A stretch of 64,000 nucleotides of DNA from contig JARCRQ010000012.1 of NCBI GenBank assembly GCA_029850585.1, forward strand, positions 6,130 through 70,129. Direction: 5' to 3'. Each line of letters opens with the position of its first letter. The stretch's first letter is position 1. This DNA is from Sideroxydans sp. GTDB taxonomy: Bacteria; Pseudomonadota; Gammaproteobacteria; Burkholderiales; Gallionellaceae. The notes beneath the pieces are model-generated. The model had not been told where the DNA came from and searched no databases. It was given only the letters and a program-made list of their open reading frames with translations. Position numbers and translations under genes: made by a program. Below, piece by piece: positions 3,389 to 21,999 of the stretch.

Positions 3389-3411
3389 GCGTGTCTTTCC
3401 AGTAAGTTGCG

Positions 3412-3496
3412 CCCTCGCTAGGGGTCTGCCCACTCAACTGGAGCAGTGAGAAACACCCTTTGAACCTGTACGGATCATGCCGTCGTAGGGAAGCAT
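3412..3496 (+). ncRNA. TPP riboswitch
   Basis: CTAGGGGT...TGAGAAACACCCTTTGAACCTG...GGATCATGCC...CGTAGGGAAG, directly upstream of thiC. Confidence 0.95.
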
Positions 3497-3505
3497 TCTT
3501 AAAAA

Positions 3506-3536
3506 GATGCTCCCCATTTTTATTTCTTGGAGCATC
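3506..3536 (+). promoter_or_regulatory. RBS-sequestering hairpin (TPP expression platform)
   Basis: GATGCTCC (3506-3513) pairs with GGAGCATC (3529-3536), which contains the thiC SD. Confidence 0.75.
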
Positions 3537-3542
3537 ACATAA

Positions 3543-5417
<1,875 letters not shown>

Positions 5418-5438
5418 GCATCCCAACAGGAGCGCGTC

Positions 5439-7226
5439 ATGTTGCGAAAATTGTTATTGGTTGGGACATTGCAAGGCTGGGGTTTGTGGGCGTTATGGCA
5501 AGCGAACGAGTTAAAGCTGTGGCCTGCCACCGACAGTATCAGCCTGCACGCCTTGTTGTATCTAGCTTTATCTGTGCCGCTGGCGATTTATTTGAGTGCC
5601 GATTTAAGCTCGCTCAGCCGCACGCGGCGCATCCAACTGCTAGCATTTATTGCTGTTTTATTCCCCCTGTTAGGCGCATATAGCGGCTGGGCAAACGACT
5701 TTATAGCCACCACCAGCTTTGATACGCAGCGTTTTCGTCCAGGCGATTTATTAGCGGCTAGCGTATTAGGTTTCGTCCTGATTCCACTGTTGGCGCACTT
5801 CAACCCAACCACGCGCAGCTGGACATATCACGATTTATTTGCCAGTGCGTGGCGCAACGCCATGTTGTGCTTGAGCGCGGGCGCATTGACAGGCCTGTTT
5901 TGGGTGGTGTTAGTGGCAGGTTCGGGCTTGTTAGATTTAATCGGCTTGAGCTTTATGCATCAGCTTATTGAGCAAGCGGTGTTCATTATTCCCGTGACCA
6001 GCATTGCCTTTAGCACCGCCTTCGCGCTCGGTTTGGCGCGCAGCGAAATGGTCATCACGCTGCGGCGTTTCCAGTTGTCCATGCTGGCTTGGCTATTGCC
6101 ACTGTTGATGCTGTTTATCGTGGTGTGGGTGGCGGCTTTGCCCTTCACTGGCGTGGACGCGTTATTCAAAACCCATGATGCGGCATTCATCATGTTGTGG
6201 TGCGCGGCGTTGTGTATCAACTTCGTCAATGCCGCCTATCAAGACGGACTCACGCCGCCAGCTTATGGTCGTTTACTCAGTCGCAGCTTGGCATGGGCGT
6301 GGTTAGGCTTATTGGTGGTGGTCAGCGTGGCATGGTGGGCGATGGGCTTGCGCATTGCGCAATACGGCTGGAGCGAAGATCGCGTGTGGGGCGTATTCGT
6401 CGCTTTGATGGCGAGCATTTATGTGCTGGGCTACGCACTATCCGCCTGGCGCGCCCAGCCTTGGCTGGCAAGCATCAGCACCACCAATATCATTGCGGCA
6501 ATCGTACTGTGTGGTGGCTTACTGGCTTTGTTAAGCCCGCTTGCCGACGCACGGCGTATCGCGGTAAACAGCCAAATGCAACGCCTCAGCGCGCAAACAG
6601 TCACGTTGGAAAAATTTGATTTTGACTATCTGCGTTGGGAGGCGGGTCGTTACGGACACGAGGCGTTAGCGCAGTTGGCGACTGGCATAGCTCATCCCGA
6701 ACAAACCGCTATCGCCGCAAAAGCCAAATTATTTATCGCCAAAACGCAACGCTGGAATAGCGAAAATGAAACCTTGAGCGCGGCGCAATTGCGCAGCAAG
6801 TTGCGCGTCTTACCGAGTAAGGCGGTGCTGGATGAAAAACTTATCAGCGCAATGATGGCGGCAGAGAAACAACATTGGCTACTCAGGCGATGCTTTGAAC
6901 TCAATTCAGAATGCGCGGTGTGGTTGCTGGATGTCAATAATGACCAACGCTTAGATGCCGTTCTCTTCGCAAGAGAAGCGAGTCGTGCGGAAGCAGGTGT
7001 GATAGTGATGCAAAATTTTGGCGACAACTACCGCCTTAATGGTGAATTTCCCGCGTCGAATGTTTGCTATGAAGACAGCTTGGCGCAAATCGCCGCCGGT
7101 AATTTCAAATTAGTTAAACCCGAATTTAACGATATAGAAATTGCAGGGCAGCGATTTCAGCTTCGTACCTACCGACCCACAACGAATTCATATTGCGGCA
7201 AAAACAATGCTCACAAATCTAATTAG
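5439..7226 (+). CDS. DUF4153-type polytopic membrane protein
   Basis: About 10 TM segments, RIAQYGWSEDR motif, soluble C-terminal domain. Confidence 0.65.
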   Translation: MLRKLLLVGTLQGWGLWALWQANELKLWPATDSISLHALLYLALSVPLAIYLSADLSSLSRTRRIQLLAFIAVLFPLLGAYSGWANDFIATTSFDTQRFRPGDLLAASVLGFVLIPLLAHFNPTTRSWTYHDLFASAWRNAMLCLSAGALTGLFWVVLVAGSGLLDLIGLSFMHQLIEQAVFIIPVTSIAFSTAFALGLARSEMVITLRRFQLSMLAWLLPLLMLFIVVWVAALPFTGVDALFKTHDAAFIMLWCAALCINFVNAAYQDGLTPPAYGRLLSRSLAWAWLGLLVVVSVAWWAMGLRIAQYGWSEDRVWGVFVALMASIYVLGYALSAWRAQPWLASISTTNIIAAIVLCGGLLALLSPLADARRIAVNSQMQRLSAQTVTLEKFDFDYLRWEAGRYGHEALAQLATGIAHPEQTAIAAKAKLFIAKTQRWNSENETLSAAQLRSKLRVLPSKAVLDEKLISAMMAAEKQHWLLRRCFELNSECAVWLLDVNNDQRLDAVLFAREASRAEAGVIVMQNFGDNYRLNGEFPASNVCYEDSLAQIAAGNFKLVKPEFNDIEIAGQRFQLRTYRPTTNSYCGKNNAHKSN

Positions 7227-7419
7227 CGTCACTGCTGAATCGCCTTGTACAGGTCATTGCAGCACCGTGCTAGGCGACGATGTGTGTCGCAGTTGTAAGC
7301 GCACTTTTGACGAAATTATCGCTTGGCCAACGATTACCGATGCGCAGCGCATCGCCATCAATCAACGCGTTGCGCGCTTAGCACTGACAACCTCTCCACT
7401 CACCACTCACCAAAATTAA
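7207..7419 (+). CDS. DUF1289 family Cys-rich protein
   Basis: SPCTGHCS...[15 protein letters not shown]. Start moved to ATG 7207. Confidence 0.8.
7396..7411 (+). repeat. tandem CCACTCA heptamer (same family as 23353 and 47332)
   Basis: CCACTCACCACTCACC. Confidence 0.5.
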
Positions 7420-7420
7420 A

Positions 7421-8245
7421 ATGGATATTATTTTATTGCTCAAGGCAGCCATTCTTGGCATCGTCGAAGGTCTCACCGAATTTTTGCCTATCTCCTCGAC
7501 AGGGCATTTAATTTTAGTCGGCGATTTGCTCAACTTTAATGACGCGCGCGGCAAGGTATTTGAGATTGTCATTCAGTTCGCTGCCATCCTCGCGGTGTGC
7601 TGGGAATATCGTGCCAAGCTGGCATCGGTGTCATCTGGCTTGCTGCAAAAACAAGCAGCCGCGCAACGCTTCACACTCAATTTATTTATCGCCTTTTTAC
7701 CGCTGGCGATATTAGGTTTGTTGTTTGGTAAAGTGATTAAGGAACACTTGTTCGCGCCGATTCCTGTTGCGCTGGCGTTTATCGTCGGCGGCTTAATTAT
7801 CTTGTGGGCAGAAAAACGTCAGCATGTCATTCGCATCGAAAATGTCGAAGATATGCACTGGCGCGACGCGTTGAAAATGGGGCTGGCGCAAGCCTTGGCG
7901 TTGATACCTGGCACGTCGCGTTCGGGTTCGACCATCATCGGTGGTTTATTTTTTGGTTTATCACGCCGTGCCGCCACCGAGTTCTCATTTTTTTTAGCGA
8001 TACCCACTATCAGCATGGCGACGCTGTATGAAGTGGTGAAGTACCGCCACGATTTTCACAGCGAGGACATGGGCATCTTTTTAGTCGGTTCGATTGCGTC
8101 ATTTATCAGCGCGTTTTTCGCGGTGCGCGCTTTGTTGCGTTACATCAGCCGCCATGATTTCACAGCCTTTGCTTGGTATCGCATCGCCTTTGGTTTGATT
8201 GTGCTGGCAACTTATTTCACCGACGCGGTGAACTGGTCAGCGTAA
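7421..8245 (+). CDS. uppP: undecaprenyl-diphosphate phosphatase
   Basis: [17 protein letters not shown] and PGTSRSG motifs. Confidence 0.98.
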
Positions 8246-8285
8246 TAATGGTCTAGTCGCTTAGCGTGTTTTACCTAGCCTGGCA

Positions 8286-8322
8286 ATGACCATTTATCAG
8301 CCGATAAATGGTCATATTTTTT
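8286..8322 (+). terminator. rho-independent terminator
   Basis: 13-bp perfect stem ATGACCATTTATC/GATAAATGGTCAT followed by a T-run. Confidence 0.75.
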
Positions 8323-8382
8323 GGGCGGAGAAAACTATTTCTCCCGTAAAATGCGCGGCTTTTTTTACTTTAGGAAATCATC

Positions 8383-8874
8383 ATGTCACGCACCCTTATC
8401 GCTTTATTTTGTTTGACCTCTATCGTTAGCAGCGCGTTTGCTGAAACGCCCGCTGAAATTCTTGCCACGATTAAAGCTGAAGCCGCGAATACCGCTGGCT
8501 TTCAAGGTTTTTCTGCTGCGCGCGGCGAAACTTTTTTCAAGGCTAAACATGGCGGCGAATGGAGTTGCTCGTCTTGCCATACCGATAATCCGATGAATTC
8601 GGGCAAACATGCTAAGACCGAAAAAGTCATTAAACCGATGGCTCCTAAGGCAAATGAAGAACGCTTTACTGAACCGAAAAAAGTAGCGAAATGGTTTAAG
8701 CGTAATTGCAACGATGTATTGGATCGCGAATGTACGGCGCAAGAACAAGGCGACGTCATGAGCTATTTGTTAGCCGTCGGTCAGCCTGTTGCCGCCGCAC
8801 CTGCACCTGTTGCTAAGCCAGTTGAAGCCGCGCCTGCCGCAGCACATAGCAGCCATAAACACTCCGCTCACTAA
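8383..8874 (+). CDS. SHP-like (DUF1924) monoheme cytochrome c
   Basis: Signal peptide, CSSCH, and KWFKRNCNDVLDREC (Asn ligand plus disulfide pattern of sphaeroides heme protein). Confidence 0.85.
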   Translation: MSRTLIALFCLTSIVSSAFAETPAEILATIKAEAANTAGFQGFSAARGETFFKAKHGGEWSCSSCHTDNPMNSGKHAKTEKVIKPMAPKANEERFTEPKKVAKWFKRNCNDVLDRECTAQEQGDVMSYLLAVGQPVAAAPAPVAKPVEAAPAAAHSSHKHSAH

Positions 8875-8880
8875 GCCGCC

Positions 8881-9489
8881 ATGACTAAAAAAATTCTAGT
8901 GTGGGACGTGCCCACGCGGGTGTTTCATTGGCTGCAAGCCTTGTCTTTTTTGGGTGCGTATCTCACTGCTGATTCCGAAAAAACCCGCGAGATACACGTC
9001 ACGCTGGGCTTTATTTTGTTCGGCTTAATTGCCTTTCGTTTGGTGTGGGGGGTTGTTGGCAGCAAGCACGCGCGCTTTAGCTCGTTTATTTTTCATCCCG
9101 CCACCGTCATCACTTATGTGCGCTCGCTGTTCAAAAATGATGCGCAACATTTTGTCGGTCACAACCCCATCGGCAGCATTGCGATTTGGTTATTACTCGG
9201 CATGGGCATCGGTCTTGGTGTGACGGGCGTGCTGTTGCTGCAAGACGACGTAGCAGACAGCGTAGTCACCATCCACGCTTATCTCACCAACGGCATGTTG
9301 GTGGTGATTGCGGGGCATTTGTTTGGTGTCGCGATGAGCAGTTTTTTGCATAAAGAAAACCTCGTGCGCGCCATGATTACTGGCTACAAAAAAGGGGCAG
9401 AACAACACGGCATCACCCACGGCTACGCTTGGTTAGGTGCGGCATTAGTCATCGCTGCTGCCGTGTTCGCCTATCTGTACAACCGCTAA
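8881..9489 (+). CDS. cytochrome b/b6-domain membrane protein
   Basis: VWDVPTRVFHW, IHVTLG, GHNPIG, AGHLFGV motifs. Confidence 0.9.
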   Translation: MTKKILVWDVPTRVFHWLQALSFLGAYLTADSEKTREIHVTLGFILFGLIAFRLVWGVVGSKHARFSSFIFHPATVITYVRSLFKNDAQHFVGHNPIGSIAIWLLLGMGIGLGVTGVLLLQDDVADSVVTIHAYLTNGMLVVIAGHLFGVAMSSFLHKENLVRAMITGYKKGAEQHGITHGYAWLGAALVIAAAVFAYLYNR

Positions 9490-14742: not shown

Positions 14743-15474
14743 ATGAGCAAAACCCACTTCGGTTTCGAGACCGTCGATGAAACCGAAAAAGCCAAGAAAG
14801 TCGCAGGCGTGTTTACTTCGGTCGCCAGCAAATACGACGTGATGAACGACTTGATGTCGGTCGGCTTGCATCGCATTTGGAAACGCTATGCGGTGAGCGT
14901 CAGCGGCGTGCGTGAAGGGCAAAAAGTATTGGATGTGGCGGGTGGTTCGGCGGATTTGTCGCGCTTGTTTTTGAAAGCGGTGGGCAGCAGCGGACAAGTG
15001 GTGCTGACCGACATTAACAATGCCATGTTGCGCGTCGGCCGTGACCGTTTGCTCCACGAAGGCATTGCCACGCCAACCACGCAATGCGATGCCGAACATC
15101 TGCCGTTTCCCGATAATTATTTTGATTGCGTGAGCATCGCGTTTGGTCTGCGCAACGTCACGCACAAAGAAGCCGCGCTGCGCGAAATGCACCGCGTCAT
15201 CAAACCCGGCGGTCGCGTGATTGTTTTGGAGTTTTCCAAAGTTGCCAAGCCACTAGAAAAAGCCTACGACTTTTATTCCTTCAAACTGCTGCCGAAAATG
15301 GGGCAAATGATTGCGGGCGATGCCGACAGCTACCGCTACCTCGCCGAATCCATCCGTATGCATCCGGGACAAGAAGAGCTCAAACACATGATGACGGACG
15401 CTGGTTTAGAACGCGTTGAATATTTTAATTTGACGGGTGGGGTGGTGGCGGTGCATCGAGGGTATAAACTTTAA
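14743..15474 (+). CDS. ubiE: ubiquinone/menaquinone C-methyltransferase
   Basis: [28 protein letters not shown] motifs. Confidence 0.98.
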
Positions 15475-15623
15475 CGGCGTTTTTGTTTGCCTAGTCGCCA
15501 TGTTTTGTTTTGCATCATTTGTTAAATCAACAAGGTACAAACAATGAACCAGCTTATGCGGCAAACCTGCTCAAGTTATACGGCGATATTGCCGTCGAAT
15601 ATACGTTAACCGTCGCAATCATC

Positions 15624-16382
15624 ATGACCGCCATAATCCTTATCGTTACCGCTGTCTCGCTCACAACATGGGCAGGATGGGCACTCTGGCGTTCTCCGTT
15701 GCTACTCATTCAAAGTGCCGAGGATGTGCAACCCAGAGGTTTCATTCAAAAGCAGGTACGCTATCAAACTTCATTCTTTGTGTTGGCAGTGGTTGTCGCT
15801 GTCCTTGCTAACTCGCTGGCTACTCAAGAAAGCGGAAAAGTGTTCGGCATTGGAGCGCTCGCATCTCCGATTCAAGCCGAGGCTTTTGGTTTACTCCACA
15901 TGGATGGTGCCTCTTGGCTACAGTTGGGCAGCCTGCTGACACTTGGTTTCGGTTTGTCCACCTTGGCATTGGTTTCTGCTTCTTTGCGCGGCATTGCCAA
16001 TTGGCCGGAATTCCTTAGAAGGTTTGGCTTGTGGGTTATCGTGCTGTCGGCGGTAAACGCGCTATCGGAAGAACTCATCTACCGAGGAGCGATAGTCGCT
16101 GTAGCCCAAGGGCTGTTGCAACCATCACAAATCGCGCTCTTGTCGGCAATGCTTTTCGCATTGGCACATATTCGAGGACAAGCCTCTGGCATCGCTGTTG
16201 TCGCAGGCTCTGCAGTAGTGGGTTGGTGTCTTGCTCATGCCGTGTTGCAGACTCATGGTTTGTTTTGGGCTTGGTGCGCACACTTTGTGCAGGACATCGC
16301 AATTTTTCTCGCTTTCATTGCGGCGATGGCTAACCCTCCGCTCAACATGGACGCGCCGAAAAGCGGCGCGCCAGTTAGCTAG
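15624..16382 (+). CDS. CPBP (Abi/CAAX) intramembrane metalloprotease, integron cassette ORF
   Basis: EELIYRG, FALAH, AHFVQD motifs; multiple TM segments; atypical codon usage; reads into an attC. Confidence 0.8.
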   Translation: MTAIILIVTAVSLTTWAGWALWRSPLLLIQSAEDVQPRGFIQKQVRYQTSFFVLAVVVAVLANSLATQESGKVFGIGALASPIQAEAFGLLHMDGASWLQLGSLLTLGFGLSTLALVSASLRGIANWPEFLRRFGLWVIVLSAVNALSEELIYRGAIVAVAQGLLQPSQIALLSAMLFALAHIRGQASGIAVVAGSAVVGWCLAHAVLQTHGLFWAWCAHFVQDIAIFLAFIAAMANPPLNMDAPKSGAPVS

Positions 16383-16518: not shown

Positions 16519-16669
16519 GCCCCAACTAAAACACGATTGCGCTTTCCCTCTCTCCACCGCTCATCGCCAATCCGACACCGTTCGTCTGCTCATTTGCCGT
16601 TCATTTTGCCTTGCCAAAAACCGACCAATCACCTTGGTGTTTAGTGCGTCGCTCGCTATTGTGCGCGCC

Positions 16670-16755
16670 AGCAACATGGGGCAAAACCTGAGAAATCGGG
16701 TGACGCAAAACCTCCGGTCTTCACCTTTTTGGAAAGATAGCGGGGCTGCCATGAA
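16670..16755 (+). ncRNA. c-di-GMP-I (GEMM) riboswitch
   Basis: GGGCAAA, P2 ACCTGA-GAAA-TCGGGT, GACGCAAA junction, P3 CCTCCGGTCT...AGATAGCGGGG; matches the Vc2-type consensus. Confidence 0.88.
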
Positions 16756-16776
16756 ACCCTCTAAAGGAGGCGAATC

Positions 16777-17349
16777 ATGCATCTCGTTATCCTCGGCATT
16801 ATTCTCATTACATCGTTGGTGTCTGCCTCTAGAGTTTGCGCTGCGCCCGTCAATGGCAGCGCAAGCTCTGCCAACTCCTACGGCATCGTGGCGCGCATTT
16901 CTTCGGTGGTTTACAAGTTTGTTGAAGTGAACACCGCACCGCTTGCGGACACCACCAGCCAGCCTGTCGCGGAGTTGATTGAAGTGGAGCAACGCAACGT
17001 CAAAGCGAAAATTTTCCGTGTGGACAGCCGTATTTTTGCCAACACGTTTAGCAACACTGCGGTGGCGCAAGATTCGGCAACTTTTACCTTAAACACCCCG
17101 AATCGTGGGGTGAACAACGCTTTGTCCTTGGTCGGCACGGTGACGCAAACCGCCATCAGCAATGACACGACTAAGTTCATTCAAGTGTTGTCGTTATTGG
17201 TCCAACGCGAAGCAAAATTTGAGTTTGCTTATGTCGCACCGATGAGCCGTAACAGCCGTATCGAATCGCATCTTGATTGTCGCTTGTATAACGCTGGCGT
17301 GAGCAAAGTCGCAACGCTGGCACGCGTCGAGTATCGCGTTGAGTTCTAA
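16777..17349 (+). CDS. hypothetical secreted protein, possible small outer-membrane beta-barrel
   Basis: Strong AGGAGG RBS, signal peptide, amphipathic strands, C-terminal VEYRVEF. Confidence 0.7.
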   Translation: MHLVILGIILITSLVSASRVCAAPVNGSASSANSYGIVARISSVVYKFVEVNTAPLADTTSQPVAELIEVEQRNVKAKIFRVDSRIFANTFSNTAVAQDSATFTLNTPNRGVNNALSLVGTVTQTAISNDTTKFIQVLSLLVQREAKFEFAYVAPMSRNSRIESHLDCRLYNAGVSKVATLARVEYRVEF

Positions 17350-17560: not shown

Positions 17561-18670
17561 ATGAAATACCCATCGCTGTGCCTCCTGATTTTGTTAACCG
17601 CTTGCTCGGACAAGCCCGCTTCCAGTCCCGCTGCGGGCACGCCTCCGCCGCCTGCGGAAGTTGAAGTAATGACGGTGGTGACGGGTGATGCCACGCTAAC
17701 GCAAGATTTGCCAGGTCGCTTGCAGGCGTATCGCAGTGCGCAAGTGCGCGCGCGTGTGGATGGGGTGATTGAGCAGCGTTTGTTTCGCGAAGGGAGCGAG
17801 GTCAAAGCGGGGCAATCGCTGTATCGCATTGATGCGCGTACCAATCGCGCCGCACGGGATGCGGCGCGCGCTGATTTGGAAGCGGCGTTGATGACGGTGA
17901 CGCGTTATCAAGCGTTGTTAGAAATTAAAGCGGTGAGTCAGCAGGATTTTGATTTGATGAAAGCGCGCGCCAAGCAGGCGCAGGCGGCGATGATACGCGC
18001 CGAAGAAGACCTCAATAATGCCCAAGTCCCTGCTGCGATTACGGGGCATATCGGGCGCGCGCTGGTCAGCGAAGGCGCGTATGTGAGCCGCACCGATGCC
18101 ACGCCGCTGGCGGTGATTGAGCAGCTCGACCCTATCTATGTGAACTTCACTCAGCCCAGTGCCGATGTGCTGCGCTTGCAGCAAGCGGTTAAGGCGGGCA
18201 AGTTGAAAGCGAGTCGCTCCGTGCAAGTGGAAGTGCTGCTCGAAGATGGTCGAACGTATGAGCATAAAGGCAAAATTTTCTTCAGCGATTTGAGCATCGA
18301 CCCCAGCACGGGCGCGATTGCGATGCGCGCTGAAGTTGCCAATCCCAAACATGAATTATTGTCAGGGCAATTCGTGCGACTACGCTTTCCGCAAGCAGTG
18401 GTAGAAAACACTTTTTTAGTGCCGCAACGCGCGGTGCAATCGGGAACACAAGGACAATTCGTGCTGGTGGTCGGCGCAGACAATAAAGTCGCACCACTCC
18501 CCGTGCAAACGGGCGGCATGTCAGGCGCAGATTTCATCATCGAAGCAGGCTTAAAAGGCGGCGAACAAGTGGTGATAAACGGTCTGCAAAAAGCCCGCGC
18601 AGGTAGCGTGGTGAAGCCCGTGCCGCTCGGTGGCGCACCTGTTGCCGCTGCAACTAACGATAAGAAATAG
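17561..18670 (+). CDS. RND efflux periplasmic adaptor (AcrA/MexA family lipoprotein)
   Basis: Lipobox LTAC, VRARVDG, LYRID, DPIYVNF motifs. Confidence 0.93.
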   Translation: MKYPSLCLLILLTACSDKPASSPAAGTPPPPAEVEVMTVVTGDATLTQDLPGRLQAYRSAQVRARVDGVIEQRLFREGSEVKAGQSLYRIDARTNRAARDAARADLEAALMTVTRYQALLEIKAVSQQDFDLMKARAKQAQAAMIRAEEDLNNAQVPAAITGHIGRALVSEGAYVSRTDATPLAVIEQLDPIYVNFTQPSADVLRLQQAVKAGKLKASRSVQVEVLLEDGRTYEHKGKIFFSDLSIDPSTGAIAMRAEVANPKHELLSGQFVRLRFPQAVVENTFLVPQRAVQSGTQGQFVLVVGADNKVAPLPVQTGGMSGADFIIEAGLKGGEQVVINGLQKARAGSVVKPVPLGGAPVAAATNDKK

Positions 18671-18815
18671 TCGAACCTCTCAAAATGCAGAATTTTGGGA
18701 TGAAGCGCAAGGAGCCGCGCAGCGAATGACGCGGGCATATCAGATTGATAGACTAGGAATGAGCGAGCACGCGACACAGCGGTTCGCCCAAAAAATGAAT
18801 TTTCAGAGGTTCGAC
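18670..18815. mobile_element. 146-bp MITE-like element
   Basis: About 30-bp imperfect terminal inverted repeats, both beginning GTCGAACCTCT; no ORF. Confidence 0.65.
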
Positions 18816-18819
18816 CAAA

Positions 18820-21800
18820 ATGTTTGCTAAATTTTTTATTAATCGTCCGATTTTCGCCTGGGTTATCGCGCTGATTATTTTGCTCGGTGGCGCATTGGCA
18901 TTGAATAATCTGCCCGTCTCGCAATATCCGTCCGTCGCGCCACCCGCCTTGTCAGTGAGCATCACTTATCCGGGCGCGTCCGCGCAGGTGGTTGAGGAAA
19001 CTTCAATCGCCCTGCTGGAACAAGAGATGAACGGCATCGAGCATTTGCTCTATATGGAATCCGCTTCAGAGTTGGGTAATGGCAGCATCACGCTGACCTT
19101 TGAGGCGGGCACGAATCTCGATTTAGCCTCCGTAGAAACGCAAAACCGCATCAAGCGCGCCGAGGCGCGTCTGCCCGAAGATGTGCGGCGTTTGGGTATT
19201 ACCGTGGCGAAAACTGCGCGTAATTATGTGATGTTTGTCGCACTGTTTTCACCCGATAAAAGTCTGGACGATGTGGCACTGGGCAGCTATGCCACTGCCA
19301 GCGTGTTAGACGGTATTCGGCGCGTGCCGGGCGTGGGTGAAGCCCTATTGTTCGGTACGGAATACTCGATGCGGCTGTGGCTAAACAGCGACAAATTGCA
19401 GCATTACAAACTCTCGCCAGCGGATATTGCCAAAGCAGTGCGCGCGCAAAACTCACAACTGGCAGTGGGCGAATTAGGACAAGTTCCTGCCGTGCCAGGG
19501 CAGCAACTCAACGCCGTTATTGTGACCAAAAGCCGCCTCTCGACACCCGAAGAATTCGGCAACATCATCGTCCGCACCAACCCAGACGGCTCATCGCTGC
19601 GGGTGAAAGACGTGGCGCGGGTGGAGCTGGGTGCGCAGGATTATTCACGCAACGCGCGCATTGACGGACAGCCCACTGCCGCGATTGCGATTCGTTTATC
19701 GCCGGGCGCAAACGCGCTGAGTACCGTGCGCGACGTGAATGCCAAGATGACCGAGTTGGCAAAATTTTTCCCTAACCCTCCCCCGCAAGCGGGAGAGGGG
19801 ACAAACGAAACGCTGCGCGTCACTCCAGTTAAAAGTCTTGATTGGGCGGTGCCTTACGACACCTCAAAATTCATCGACATTTCCATCAAAGAAGTGTTGA
19901 AGAGTCTCGCCGAAGCCTTGCTGTTGGTGGTGTTGGTGATGTATTTATTTTTGGAAAATTGGCGCGCCACGCTGATTCCCGCCATCGTCATTCCGATCGC
20001 CCTAATCGGCGCGCTGGTCGGGCTTTATTTGCTGGGTTATTCCATCAACGTGCTGACGCTGTTTGCGATGGTGCTGGCGATTGGTATCGTGGTGGATGAT
20101 GCCATTGTGGTGGTGGAAAACGTCGAACGCATTATGTCCACGGAAGGCTTGTCGCCGCGCGAGGCGACGCGCAAAGCGATGGAGCAAATTGTCGGTGCGA
20201 TTATTGCCATCACGCTGGTGTTGATGGCGGTGTTTATTCCGATGGCGTTTTTCCCTGGCTCGACGGGCGCGATTTATCGCCAATTCGCCGTGACCTTGGT
20301 GCTGACCATGATGTTCTCCGCCTTGATGGCGTTGACACTCACGCCTGCCCTGTGCGCGACCTTGCTCAAACACAAGACCGAAAATTTAGGCGCGAACCTG
20401 CTCGCTGGCGGCGGATTTTTCGCTTGGTTTAATCGCTTGTTCTCGCGCAGCACCAACGGCTATGTAAATCGCGTCGCCAAAATCGCCAAAAAACCAGCCC
20501 GCTATTTGCTGATTTACGCGGCAATTTTCATCGCGATGGGCTGGCTGTTTACCAAATTGCCAGGCAGCTTTTTACCCGAAGAAGACCAAGGCTATTTCAT
20601 CAACGTGATTCAGTTGCCTGCGGGCGCGTCTAAAGAACGCACCTTGGCAGTGTTGAATCAAGTCGAACAGTTTTACCTCAAACAAACCGAGGTCGAACAC
20701 GTTATCGGCGTGGCGGGATTTTCCTTTTTCGGGCGCGGACAAAACATGGCGATAGCCTTTGTGCGCCTCAAAGGTTGGGACGAACGCCCCGCTGCCAACA
20801 GTAGCTCAACCGCCTTGGTGCGTAAGGCGAACATGGCGATGTTCGGCATTAAACAAGCGATGATATTCGCCATCAATCCACCGCCTATTCCTGAACTCGC
20901 GGCATCGGGCGGCTTTGATTTGCGCTTGCAAGACCGAGGCGGATTGGGACGCGAAAAATTGCTGGAAGCCCGCAATATAGCACTGGGCATGGCAGCGCAA
21001 AATCCCGTGTTGGCGGGCGTACGTCCCGAAGGTCAGGAAGCGGGCCCGCAATTATTTTTGGACATAGACCGCGTCAAAGCGGAAGCCTTGGGCGTGTCCA
21101 TCACCGATCTGAACGACACCCTGCAAGCCACACTGGGCGTGGCTTACATCAATGACTTTGCGCGCCAAGGACGCATTTTGCGCGTGCAAATGCAAGCCGA
21201 GGCGGCATTGCGCAGCAGCCCCGCTGACATTTTGAAACTGTCGATACGCAACAGCCGTGGCGGCATGGTGTCGCTGGCAGAACTCGCCACGCCGCGCTGG
21301 ATGGTCGGCGCGCCCAAGCTCGACCGCTACAACGGCATCGCGGCGATGAAAATTTCTGGCGCACCTGCGCCCGGTCGCAGCTCAGGCGAAGCGGTTGCCG
21401 CGATGGAGCAAATCGCTGCGAAGTTGCCGCCGGGCATCGGTTATGAATGGTCAGGCACGTCGTTTGAAGAGCGCATGTCGGGTCAGCAAGCCCCTCTGTT
21501 GTTCGCCATTTCGCTATTCGTGGTGTTCCTGTGTTTAGCGGCGTTGTACGAAAGCTGGTCGATTCCCTTTGCGGTGTTATTGGTCGTACCGCTGGGTATT
21601 TTCGGCGCGGTCTTAGCAGTGACGTTGCGCGGCTTACCCAATGATGTGTATTTCAAAGTGGGCTTGATTGCCATCATTGGTTTGTCGTCTAAAAATGCGA
21701 TTTTGATTATCGAATTTGCGCGCCGTTTACAAGACCAAGGCATGGGCTTAATCGATGCGACGCTGGAAGCGTGCCGCTTGCGTTTCCGCCCGATTTTGAT

Positions 21801-21999
21801 GACTTCCATCGCGTTTATCGTCGGCGTATTGCCACTGGCGATTTCCACAGGCGCGGGTGCGCAAAGCCGCCATGCGATTGGTACGGGCGTGATGGGCGGG
21901 ATGATTGCGGCGACGGTGCTGGCGGTGTTTTTAGTGCCCGTATTTTTTGTGGTGGTGCGCAAAATTTTCCCAGGTCACACGCGCAATCAGCACCCTTAA
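18820..21999 (+). CDS. RND efflux permease (AcrB/MexB family)
   Basis: FFINRPIFAWV, GIVVDDAIVVVEN, KNAILIIEFA, RPILMTS motifs. Confidence 0.97.
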   Translation: MFAKFFINRPIFAWVIALIILLGGALALNNLPVSQYPSVAPPALSVSITYPGASAQVVEETSIALLEQEMNGIEHLLYMESASELGNGSITLTFEAGTNLDLASVETQNRIKRAEARLPEDVRRLGITVAKTARNYVMFVALFSPDKSLDDVALGSYATASVLDGIRRVPGVGEALLFGTEYSMRLWLNSDKLQHYKLSPADIAKAVRAQNSQLAVGELGQVPAVPGQQLNAVIVTKSRLSTPEEFGNIIVRTNPDGSSLRVKDVARVELGAQDYSRNARIDGQPTAAIAIRLSPGANALSTVRDVNAKMTELAKFFPNPPPQAGEGTNETLRVTPVKSLDWAVPYDTSKFIDISIKEVLKSLAEALLLVVLVMYLFLENWRATLIPAIVIPIALIGALVGLYLLGYSINVLTLFAMVLAIGIVVDDAIVVVENVERIMSTEGLSPREATRKAMEQIVGAIIAITLVLMAVFIPMAFFPGSTGAIYRQFAVTLVLTMMFSALMALTLTPALCATLLKHKTENLGANLLAGGGFFAWFNRLFSRSTNGYVNRVAKIAKKPARYLLIYAAIFIAMGWLFTKLPGSFLPEEDQGYFINVIQLPAGASKERTLAVLNQVEQFYLKQTEVEHVIGVAGFSFFGRGQNMAIAFVRLKGWDERPAANSSSTALVRKANMAMFGIKQAMIFAINPPPIPELAASGGFDLRLQDRGGLGREKLLEARNIALGMAAQNPVLAGVRPEGQEAGPQLFLDIDRVKAEALGVSITDLNDTLQATLGVAYINDFARQGRILRVQMQAEAALRSSPADILKLSIRNSRGGMVSLAELATPRWMVGAPKLDRYNGIAAMKISGAPAPGRSSGEAVAAMEQIAAKLPPGIGYEWSGTSFEERMSGQQAPLLFAISLFVVFLCLAALYESWSIPFAVLLVVPLGIFGAVLAVTLRGLPNDVYFKVGLIAIIGLSSKNAILIIEFARRLQDQGMGLIDATLEACRLRFRPILMTSIAFIVGVLPLAISTGAGAQSRHAIGTGVMGGMIAATVLAVFLVPVFFVVVRKIFPGHTRNQHP
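19770..19803 (+). repeat. CCCTC-type palindromic repeat inserted in frame in the RND gene
   Basis: CCCTAACCCTCCCCCGCAAGCGGGAGAGGGG encodes PNPPPQAGEG inside an insertion of about 19 aa. Confidence 0.75.

Follow-up and report, generated by a model that had tools for sequence, protein, structure and literature searches.

A class I c-di-GMP riboswitch upstream of an unnamed, lineage-restricted secreted-protein gene in Gallionellaceae

Genomic setting and the aptamer

The window (the whole 64,000-nucleotide stretch of Sideroxydans DNA analyzed here) carries a c-di-GMP-I (GEMM-I) aptamer on the + strand at positions 16670..16753, followed on the same strand by a 190-aa ORF at 16777..17349 that encodes a secreted protein of an unnamed family, as read from the ORF listing and homologue alignments. 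Upstream of this riboswitch unit are ubiE (14743-15474) and, between ubiE and the unit, a + strand gene for an Rce1/CPBP-like membrane protease (15510-16382; PF02517, E 9e-13), nothing comparable to which was present at the syntenic loci L007 and L008. Downstream of the ORF, a pair of genes for an RND efflux adaptor and a pump occupies 17561-21999. Relatives of the locus keep the upstream block rsmI-lpoA-UPF0102-SIS-CTP_transf-GBBH_N-ubiE, while the downstream gene varies among them (yjdM, plsY, or IS elements), so that riboswitch and ORF make up a unit of one gene. At locus L013, IS3-type transposase gene pairs (4632-5737 and 7017-9296) stand on both sides of the riboswitch-gene unit, which suggests that the unit is mobile. 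The only other Rfam match in the window was a TPP riboswitch (RF00059) at 3410-3508 on the + strand, with 55.2 bits against a gathering threshold of 54.3. A TPP match was also found near the family gene at L025.

The region immediately upstream of the aptamer contains two kinds of putative transcription signals. Direct repeats with the consensus ACCGYTCRT begin at 16557, 16578, and 16597 on the + strand, spaced by 21 and 19 nt, with a one-mismatch copy, CTGCTCAT, at 16588. Three of the window's six exact matches to this consensus are thus clustered within 16557..16604, and the same three boxes precede the aptamer by ~113, 92, and 73 nt in related and distant family loci such as L028 and L031-L033. 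We regard them as candidate transcription activator sites. By our own reading, a promoter-like TTGGTG-N17-TATTGT lies at 16634..16662 (+), from which transcription would begin near 16669, immediately ahead of the aptamer. Its -10 box, TA(A/T/C/G)TGTGCGC, is kept in nearly all leaders of the sublineage, even in those with a decayed aptamer. A stricter sigma-70 scan of the + strand did not list the TTGGTG-N17-TATTGT promoter because its -35 element is weak. The boxes and promoter could together act as an activator-dependent promoter that adds a transcriptional layer above the riboswitch.

The aptamer matched the Rfam covariance model RF01051 (c-di-GMP-I) with 61.9 bits (E 1.1e-09; gathering threshold, 35 bits) over model positions 1-87 of 87, in agreement with an earlier reading of the window, made without database searches (hereafter the sequence-only reading), which had claimed a full GEMM motif. 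It was the single RF01051 copy in the 1.97-Mb, 96%-complete assembly. In the RF01051 alignment, the P1 5' strand CAUGG occupies 16675-79, P2 with its GAAA loop 16686-16701, P3 16709-16747, and the P1 3' strand CAUG 16750-53, all on the + strand. The earlier placement of the aptamer 21 nt upstream of the ORF was correct in position and slightly off in distance, as the distance from the end of the Rfam match to the ATG at 16777-16779 is 23 nt.

Base 16680, a G, falls on model position 11, next to the conserved GCAAA on its 5' side, and we take this position to be the equivalent of G20 in Vc2 of V. cholerae. The equivalents of the other two ligand contacts, A47 and C92, are 16707 and 16749. Among 21 homologous leaders, the G20 equivalent was G in 20, the A47 equivalent A in 20, and the C92 equivalent C in all 21. 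The role of A47 in Vc2 is to intercalate. G20 makes a Hoogsteen contact with G-alpha of the ligand, and C92 forms a Watson-Crick pair with G-beta (PMC6140456). A sensor of 3',3'-cGAMP or of another dinucleotide in place of c-di-GMP has to be considered, given that GEMM-I includes cGAMP-sensing variants, which arise by replacement of G20 with A (PMC6140456), and that A is found at the G20 equivalent in L007 and in the distant leader shared by L029 and L030. We hold this to be very improbable for the window, where the hallmark of the cGAMP-sensing GEMM-Ib group, A at Vc2 position 20, is absent: position 16680 is the G that the sequence-only reading had assigned to the c-di-GMP type, and it is shared by nearly all of the homologous leaders. 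Moreover, Vc2 with its G20 strongly prefers c-di-GMP, for which it has a picomolar Kd, over cGAMP, which it binds only at ~10 uM (PMC6140456).

Comparison of the 21 leaders also supported the aptamer helices. In the alignment, 95% of the helix cells were paired, compared with 23-32% when partners were slid, and three aptamer pairs in P2 and P3 showed compensatory changes, a modest number because the leader sequences are closely related. P1 and the outer stem of the sequestering hairpin described below were invariant across the leaders, and therefore neither is backed by covariation; covariation support is limited to P2, P3, and the inner stem of that hairpin. The same genome encodes 13 GGDEF-domain genes and therefore makes c-di-GMP. 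Judged by its sequence, the window element is a genuine class I c-di-GMP riboswitch of the G20 type.

The linked protein family

The sequence-only reading had described a 190-aa protein with a signal peptide and a terminal YRVEF that it did not recognize, and the ORF listing, alignments, and database searches bore out each of these points. No significant match was obtained when the ORF was scanned against Pfam (the only one at E <= 1, Ost4, had an E value of 0.28, below the cutoff), and NCBIfam gave no match. The 35 aligned members gave nothing below E 0.02 against Pfam, and a profile search of the PDB returned 0 matches at E <= 10. The signal peptide, assigned by eye from the alignment, spans residues 1-22 (16777-16842, + strand) and ends in an A-x-A-type site at a near-invariant A22, ahead of the likely cleavage site. 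A run of at least 10 uncharged residues is present within the first 45 aa in 53 of the 55 distinct full-length members. The N-terminal third of the mature protein (~50 residues) shows little conservation and an abundance of S, T, P, and A, and is followed by a conserved core at about residues 75-190 (the C-terminal ~115) that reads in the alignment as short amphipathic strands joined by tight turns.

A strongly constrained part of this core is the C-terminus, which in the window has the motif TLARVEYRVEF (17314..17346, + strand). Among the 55 members, the last residue is F in 52 and L in 3, position -2 is K or R in 38 and D or E in 10, position -3 is hydrophobic in 45, position -5 is Y in 53, position -7 is hydrophobic in all 55, and position -9 is A or V in 52. 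The family thus has the terminal F/W and the hydrophobic residues 3, 5, 7, and 9 from the end that define an outer-membrane beta-signal. A C-terminus of alternating hydrophobic residues with a final F is the pattern of the insertion signal of outer-membrane proteins, and K or R at -2 of this signal is a reported preference of Neisseria-type beta-proteobacteria.

The protein resembles the 8-stranded barrels of the OmpX/OmpW/PagP/OprH class in its size (~165 aa when mature), Sec signal peptide, amphipathic strands, and short turns, and has in common with them a C-terminal hydrophobic-x-hydrophobic-x-Y-x-hydrophobic-x-F signature. It differs in belonging to a family without a sequence or profile match, in its low Gly and Trp content, in its disordered-looking N-terminal 50 residues, and in the lack of a barrel in its low-confidence AlphaFold models. 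Gly and Trp make up 4.5% and 0.6% of the family, respectively, the former being low for a small beta-barrel. The AlphaFold2 pLDDT was 36.8 for an alignment of 8 sequences and 45.8 for one of 35, and neither model contained a barrel. The 35-sequence model, itself of low confidence, placed helices at 112-122 and 129-143 among five strands. A Foldseek search of the PDB had unrelated actin-capping proteins as its top matches (best E 0.61, TM 0.26), a result that is not interpretable because of the low AlphaFold2 confidence.

These features have to be weighed between an outer-membrane beta-barrel and a soluble periplasmic or secreted alpha+beta protein. The soluble reading, to which we give slightly less than an even chance, draws on the two modeled helices, the composition, the lack of a match to any outer-membrane-barrel family in Pfam, and the alternating strand pattern, which would suit a beta-sandwich equally well. 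What it leaves without explanation is the exactness of the C-terminus, with its final F, the Y at -5, the hydrophobic -3, -7, and -9 positions, and K or R at -2, since there is no obvious reason for a soluble fold to fix its last residue. The C-terminus fits an outer-membrane beta-signal, and the protein probably sits in the outer membrane or is attached to it. As to fold, an outer-membrane barrel and a soluble secreted protein have roughly even odds. The beta-barrel-like protein with a Bam beta-signal of the sequence-only reading is one possibility.

The family is small and narrowly distributed. A word-indexed search found eight close relatives. When 1.84 billion cluster representatives were searched exhaustively with a profile, 39 clusters matched, nearly all of 183-198 aa, and 19 of the matches had E <= 1e-10. 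The ORF has its close relatives in Gallionella and beta-proteobacterial MAGs, and all family entries named in their source are called "hypothetical protein." Members were present in 13 of 151 genomes of the Gallionellaceae, the bacterial family of the window, and in seven of its 18 genera, a count that includes two gene remnants. They were present in two of 301 genomes of the order, both from the Gallionellaceae, and in 0 of 399 other scored genomes of the class. Within this single bacterial family, sequence divergence reaches 75-80%. Rapid divergence and patchy presence are what would be expected of an exposed, dispensable protein. Two sequences, L026 (1501-1689) and L027 (1501-1611), match only the C-terminal part of the family, in open frames of 79 and 48 aa, respectively, and are probably gene remnants. 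Our literature searches turned up nothing on Gallionellaceae riboswitches or on the 190-aa protein family.

The gene and the riboswitch are closely linked. Of the 26 distinct family loci that had enough 5' DNA, 21 have, immediately before the gene, an RF01051 match that reaches the threshold, and the linkage holds at 25-35% protein identity (L016, L019, L022, L025, L028, L029, L031-L034, and L036). Two library gene calls, P0019 and P0023, begin inside the aptamer, and their prefix, IRKDSGAAMNTSKE, results from translation of the riboswitch's 3' half. The five exceptions (L007, L017, L018, L021, and L023) have recognizable remnants of the same leader.

The linkage is not exclusive in the other direction. 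RF01051 occurs in 103 of the 151 Gallionellaceae genomes, with up to eight copies per genome, mostly before other genes, so the idea that GEMM-I in these bacteria belongs only to the 190-aa family was rejected. The 16 other RF01051 copies that we examined have a different aptamer sequence subtype and other genes downstream. Many of those at L037-L049 (genomes G400, G084, and G301) precede ORFs of 60-90 aa that have a 'QELRA[KR][YH]E' motif in common; HlyD-like or sensor-kinase-like genes come next. These small ORFs may be a second riboswitch-linked small-protein family.

Expression platform and proposed switch

Folding and conservation together define a hairpin at 16750..16779 (+) that would hide both the Shine-Dalgarno sequence (SD) and the start codon. 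Its outer stem pairs CAUGA (16750-54) with UCAUG (16775-79), and the 5' arm of this stem doubles as the P1 3' strand. Its inner stem pairs a local anti-SD, CCUCU (16758-62), with the SD GGAGG (16766-70). Three CAUG boxes, at 16675-78, 16750-53, and 16776-79 in window coordinates, were invariant in 21 of 21 leaders. As CAUG is self-complementary, the middle box is able to pair with either outer box, and in unconstrained folds it paired with the start box in nearly every leader. Every leader keeps the local anti-SD, which lies 4-8 nt before the SD and pairs with it in all folds. The complete hairpin was present in 17 of 17 distinct sequence variants, with predicted energies of -5.4 to -12.0 kcal/mol (-9.1 kcal/mol in the window, and -4.7 for its inner stem alone), and the inner stem has two solutions among these variants, of the CCUCU:GGAGG and AACCU:AGGUU types. 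The invariance of P1 and of the outer stem could partly come from the fixed AUG.

Partition-function calculations were consistent with an opening of the start codon by the folded aptamer. In the window, the probability that the AUG is unpaired rose from 0.03 in the free ensemble to 0.96 with the aptamer enforced, and across the 21 leaders the mean was 0.13 free and 0.95 with aptamer and P1 enforced. The corresponding means for the SD were 0.16 and 0.18. The SD is thus paired in both modeled states, and the predicted effect depends on the start codon and on the overall stability of the hairpin. The aptamer state cost 0.9-9.4 kcal/mol (mean 4.2; 21 leaders), all energies being nearest-neighbor predictions that hold no tertiary or ligand terms. 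The picomolar Kd of Vc2 implies a c-di-GMP binding energy, by our estimate, well above this cost. P1 of GEMM-I riboswitches forms upon ligand binding and is critical for it (PMC9262584). The overlap of the P1 3' strand with the strand that pairs with the start codon makes the two structures mutually exclusive in silico, as an ON switch demands. Neither the sequence nor a terminator scan revealed a + strand terminator in the interval from the aptamer to the ATG, and control is therefore exerted on translation or mRNA fate. The minimum free energy (MFE) fold of the window pairs the P3 3' strand with codons 2-6. This pairing was rejected as a general OFF structure, as it is not conserved in distant members.

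The altered and decayed leaders bear on the proposed coupling of aptamer and hairpin in both directions. At L018 and L023, loss of the aptamer was accompanied by loss of the outer sequestering stem, and this joint loss fits a functional coupling of the two, whereas at L007, L017, and L021 the hairpin was kept despite a degenerate aptamer, which counts against it.

Individual leaders have further peculiarities. The homologous leader at L007 (5928-6034) has kept P3 by compensatory changes and has lost the GAAA loop and GACGCAAA. It has the A at the G20 equivalent mentioned above and an intact SD/start hairpin of -11.4 kcal/mol, and it gave no Rfam match even at E 10; its aptamer is either degenerate or re-specified. 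The leader at L029 (3565-3648) and L030 (3077-3160) scored 43.8 bits and has GACAUUAA in place of GACGCAAA. Together with its A at the G20 equivalent, this replacement means that ligand specificity may be altered. The next downstream gene is Adhesin_E-like (PF16747). At L017 (1270-1500), a degenerate aptamer of 28 bits, below the threshold, lies ~130 nt from the RBS, and the spacer holds a second partial copy of the leader 3' end. A sub-threshold match to a group II intron domain lies downstream on the other strand.

We propose the following model. Without ligand, the P1 3' strand CAUGA would pair with UCAUG and close the hairpin, in which the anti-SD pairs with the SD, so that SD and start codon would both be hidden. 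c-di-GMP bound at the three-helix junction (G16680, A16707, and C16749) would stabilize P1, formed by CAUGG at 16675-79 and CCAUG at 16749-53. P1 formation would remove the outer stem and free the AUG, leaving a weak 5-bp SD hairpin that a ribosome could open. The product would be exported by means of its Sec signal peptide and then, to judge from its conserved C-terminus, probably be inserted into or attached to the outer membrane. At high c-di-GMP, the sessile or biofilm state, the cell surface would therefore gain the 190-aa protein. Taken as the whole explanation, a riboswitch that turns ON the translation of one self-contained gene is, in our view, likely. Within it, the aptamer match, the conserved aptamer and hairpin, the linkage of riboswitch and gene, and the distribution of the family are observations, and we infer the response to the ligand, the ON polarity, and the localization and function of the protein.

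Two other accounts of the RNA were weighed against this model. The sequence-only reading had likewise proposed a translational ON switch, with the P3 5' strand CCUCC (16711-15) as the anti-SD and ligand locking this strand into P3 to free the SD. Its polarity and level of control have in silico support and remain the best reading; the switching strand does not hold. CCTCC at 16711-16715 and the SD GGAGG at 16766-16770 do lie at the positions it gave and are perfect complements, and their pairing would indeed give ON polarity. However, the equivalent of 16711-15 is CCUCC in only five of the 21 homologous leaders, and is CCACC in 11, CAACC in four, and CCGCC in one. In the window, a fold with CCUCC:GGAGG forced has -28.5 kcal/mol against -39.0 for the MFE, a cost of 10.5 kcal/mol, and in all folds the SD is instead taken by the conserved local anti-SD. 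We therefore find control through the P3 strand distinctly improbable.

The other account accepts the aptamer as real and has it exert a different control, as an OFF switch, through Rho, through mRNA stability, or as a relic of little regulatory effect. The best-known GEMM-I riboswitch, Vc2, has been described as switching translation OFF (PMC9262584), the SD is paired in both modeled states, and the aptamer has decayed at five family loci. Yet the P1 3' strand and the start-codon sequestor are the same nucleotides, so that a ligand-stabilized P1 can only open the AUG; the constrained folds contained no ligand-favored alternative that blocks the RBS; and the window aptamer is full-length with all ligand contacts intact. 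These points leave the different-control account unlikely, although less so than control through the P3 strand, and the translational ON switch remains our preferred explanation.

Known systems and significance

Vc2, from the V. cholerae tfoY leader and the type example of RF01051, shares with the window element the three-helix aptamer, the GNRA loop of P2, and the G20, A47, and C92 equivalents. A ligand-dependent P1 and action at the level of translation are common to both, the action here being predicted. Vc2 differs in its described OFF polarity (PMC9262584), as opposed to the ON polarity predicted here, where the P1 3' strand also serves to sequester the start codon, and in its target, a regulator rather than an unnamed secreted protein. 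Two ON-type switches precede genes for surface proteins. Vc1 of V. cholerae is a GEMM-I of this type before gbpA. Bc2 of Bacillus thuringiensis is an ON-type c-di-GMP-I switch before the gene for the collagen adhesion protein Cap (PMC4933901). In both cases a GEMM-I leader mediates the induction of a secreted or surface protein at high c-di-GMP, as is predicted here. The target families are unrelated, and Bc2, in a Firmicute, works by transcription anti-termination, whereas the window leader is terminator-less and is predicted to control access to the start codon.

GEMM-I switches before secreted proteins are common, and the earlier description of this locus as a candidate for an undescribed system was overstated; its novelty lies in the target family. 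As an ordinary RF01051 member, the RNA contributes little of its own: GEMM-I riboswitches are catalogued, and any Rfam-based annotation would find them. What is new here is an unnamed, lineage-restricted target family carried as a cassette, a compact three-CAUG platform, and a series of intact, altered, and decayed sensors.

The target family has no name, domain, or structure, and its tight and ancient linkage to a c-di-GMP sensor supplies a hypothesis, that the protein is made when the cell turns sessile. The linkage also offers a simple assay handle in hard-to-grow iron oxidizers with dense c-di-GMP networks; Gallionella capsiferriformans is among the organisms with the highest c-di-GMP network densities (PMC10333796). 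The three-CAUG design is an example of a compact and easily mutable translational ON platform, and the natural series of intact, re-tuned, and decayed leaders allows a comparative view of riboswitch loss.

A broader reading, which we put forward tentatively and rate well below even, is that activator boxes, promoter, GEMM-I ON switch, and a single gene make up a mobile, self-contained cassette. It would encode a fast-evolving, lineage-restricted outer-membrane or surface protein that iron-oxidizing Gallionellaceae show only at high c-di-GMP, with the sensor re-tuned elsewhere (A at the G20 equivalent in L029 and L007) or discarded together with the sequestor (L018 and L023). If this cassette reading is true, the family would represent a new class of minimal beta-barrels or adhesins linked to attachment or to stalk and biofilm formation.
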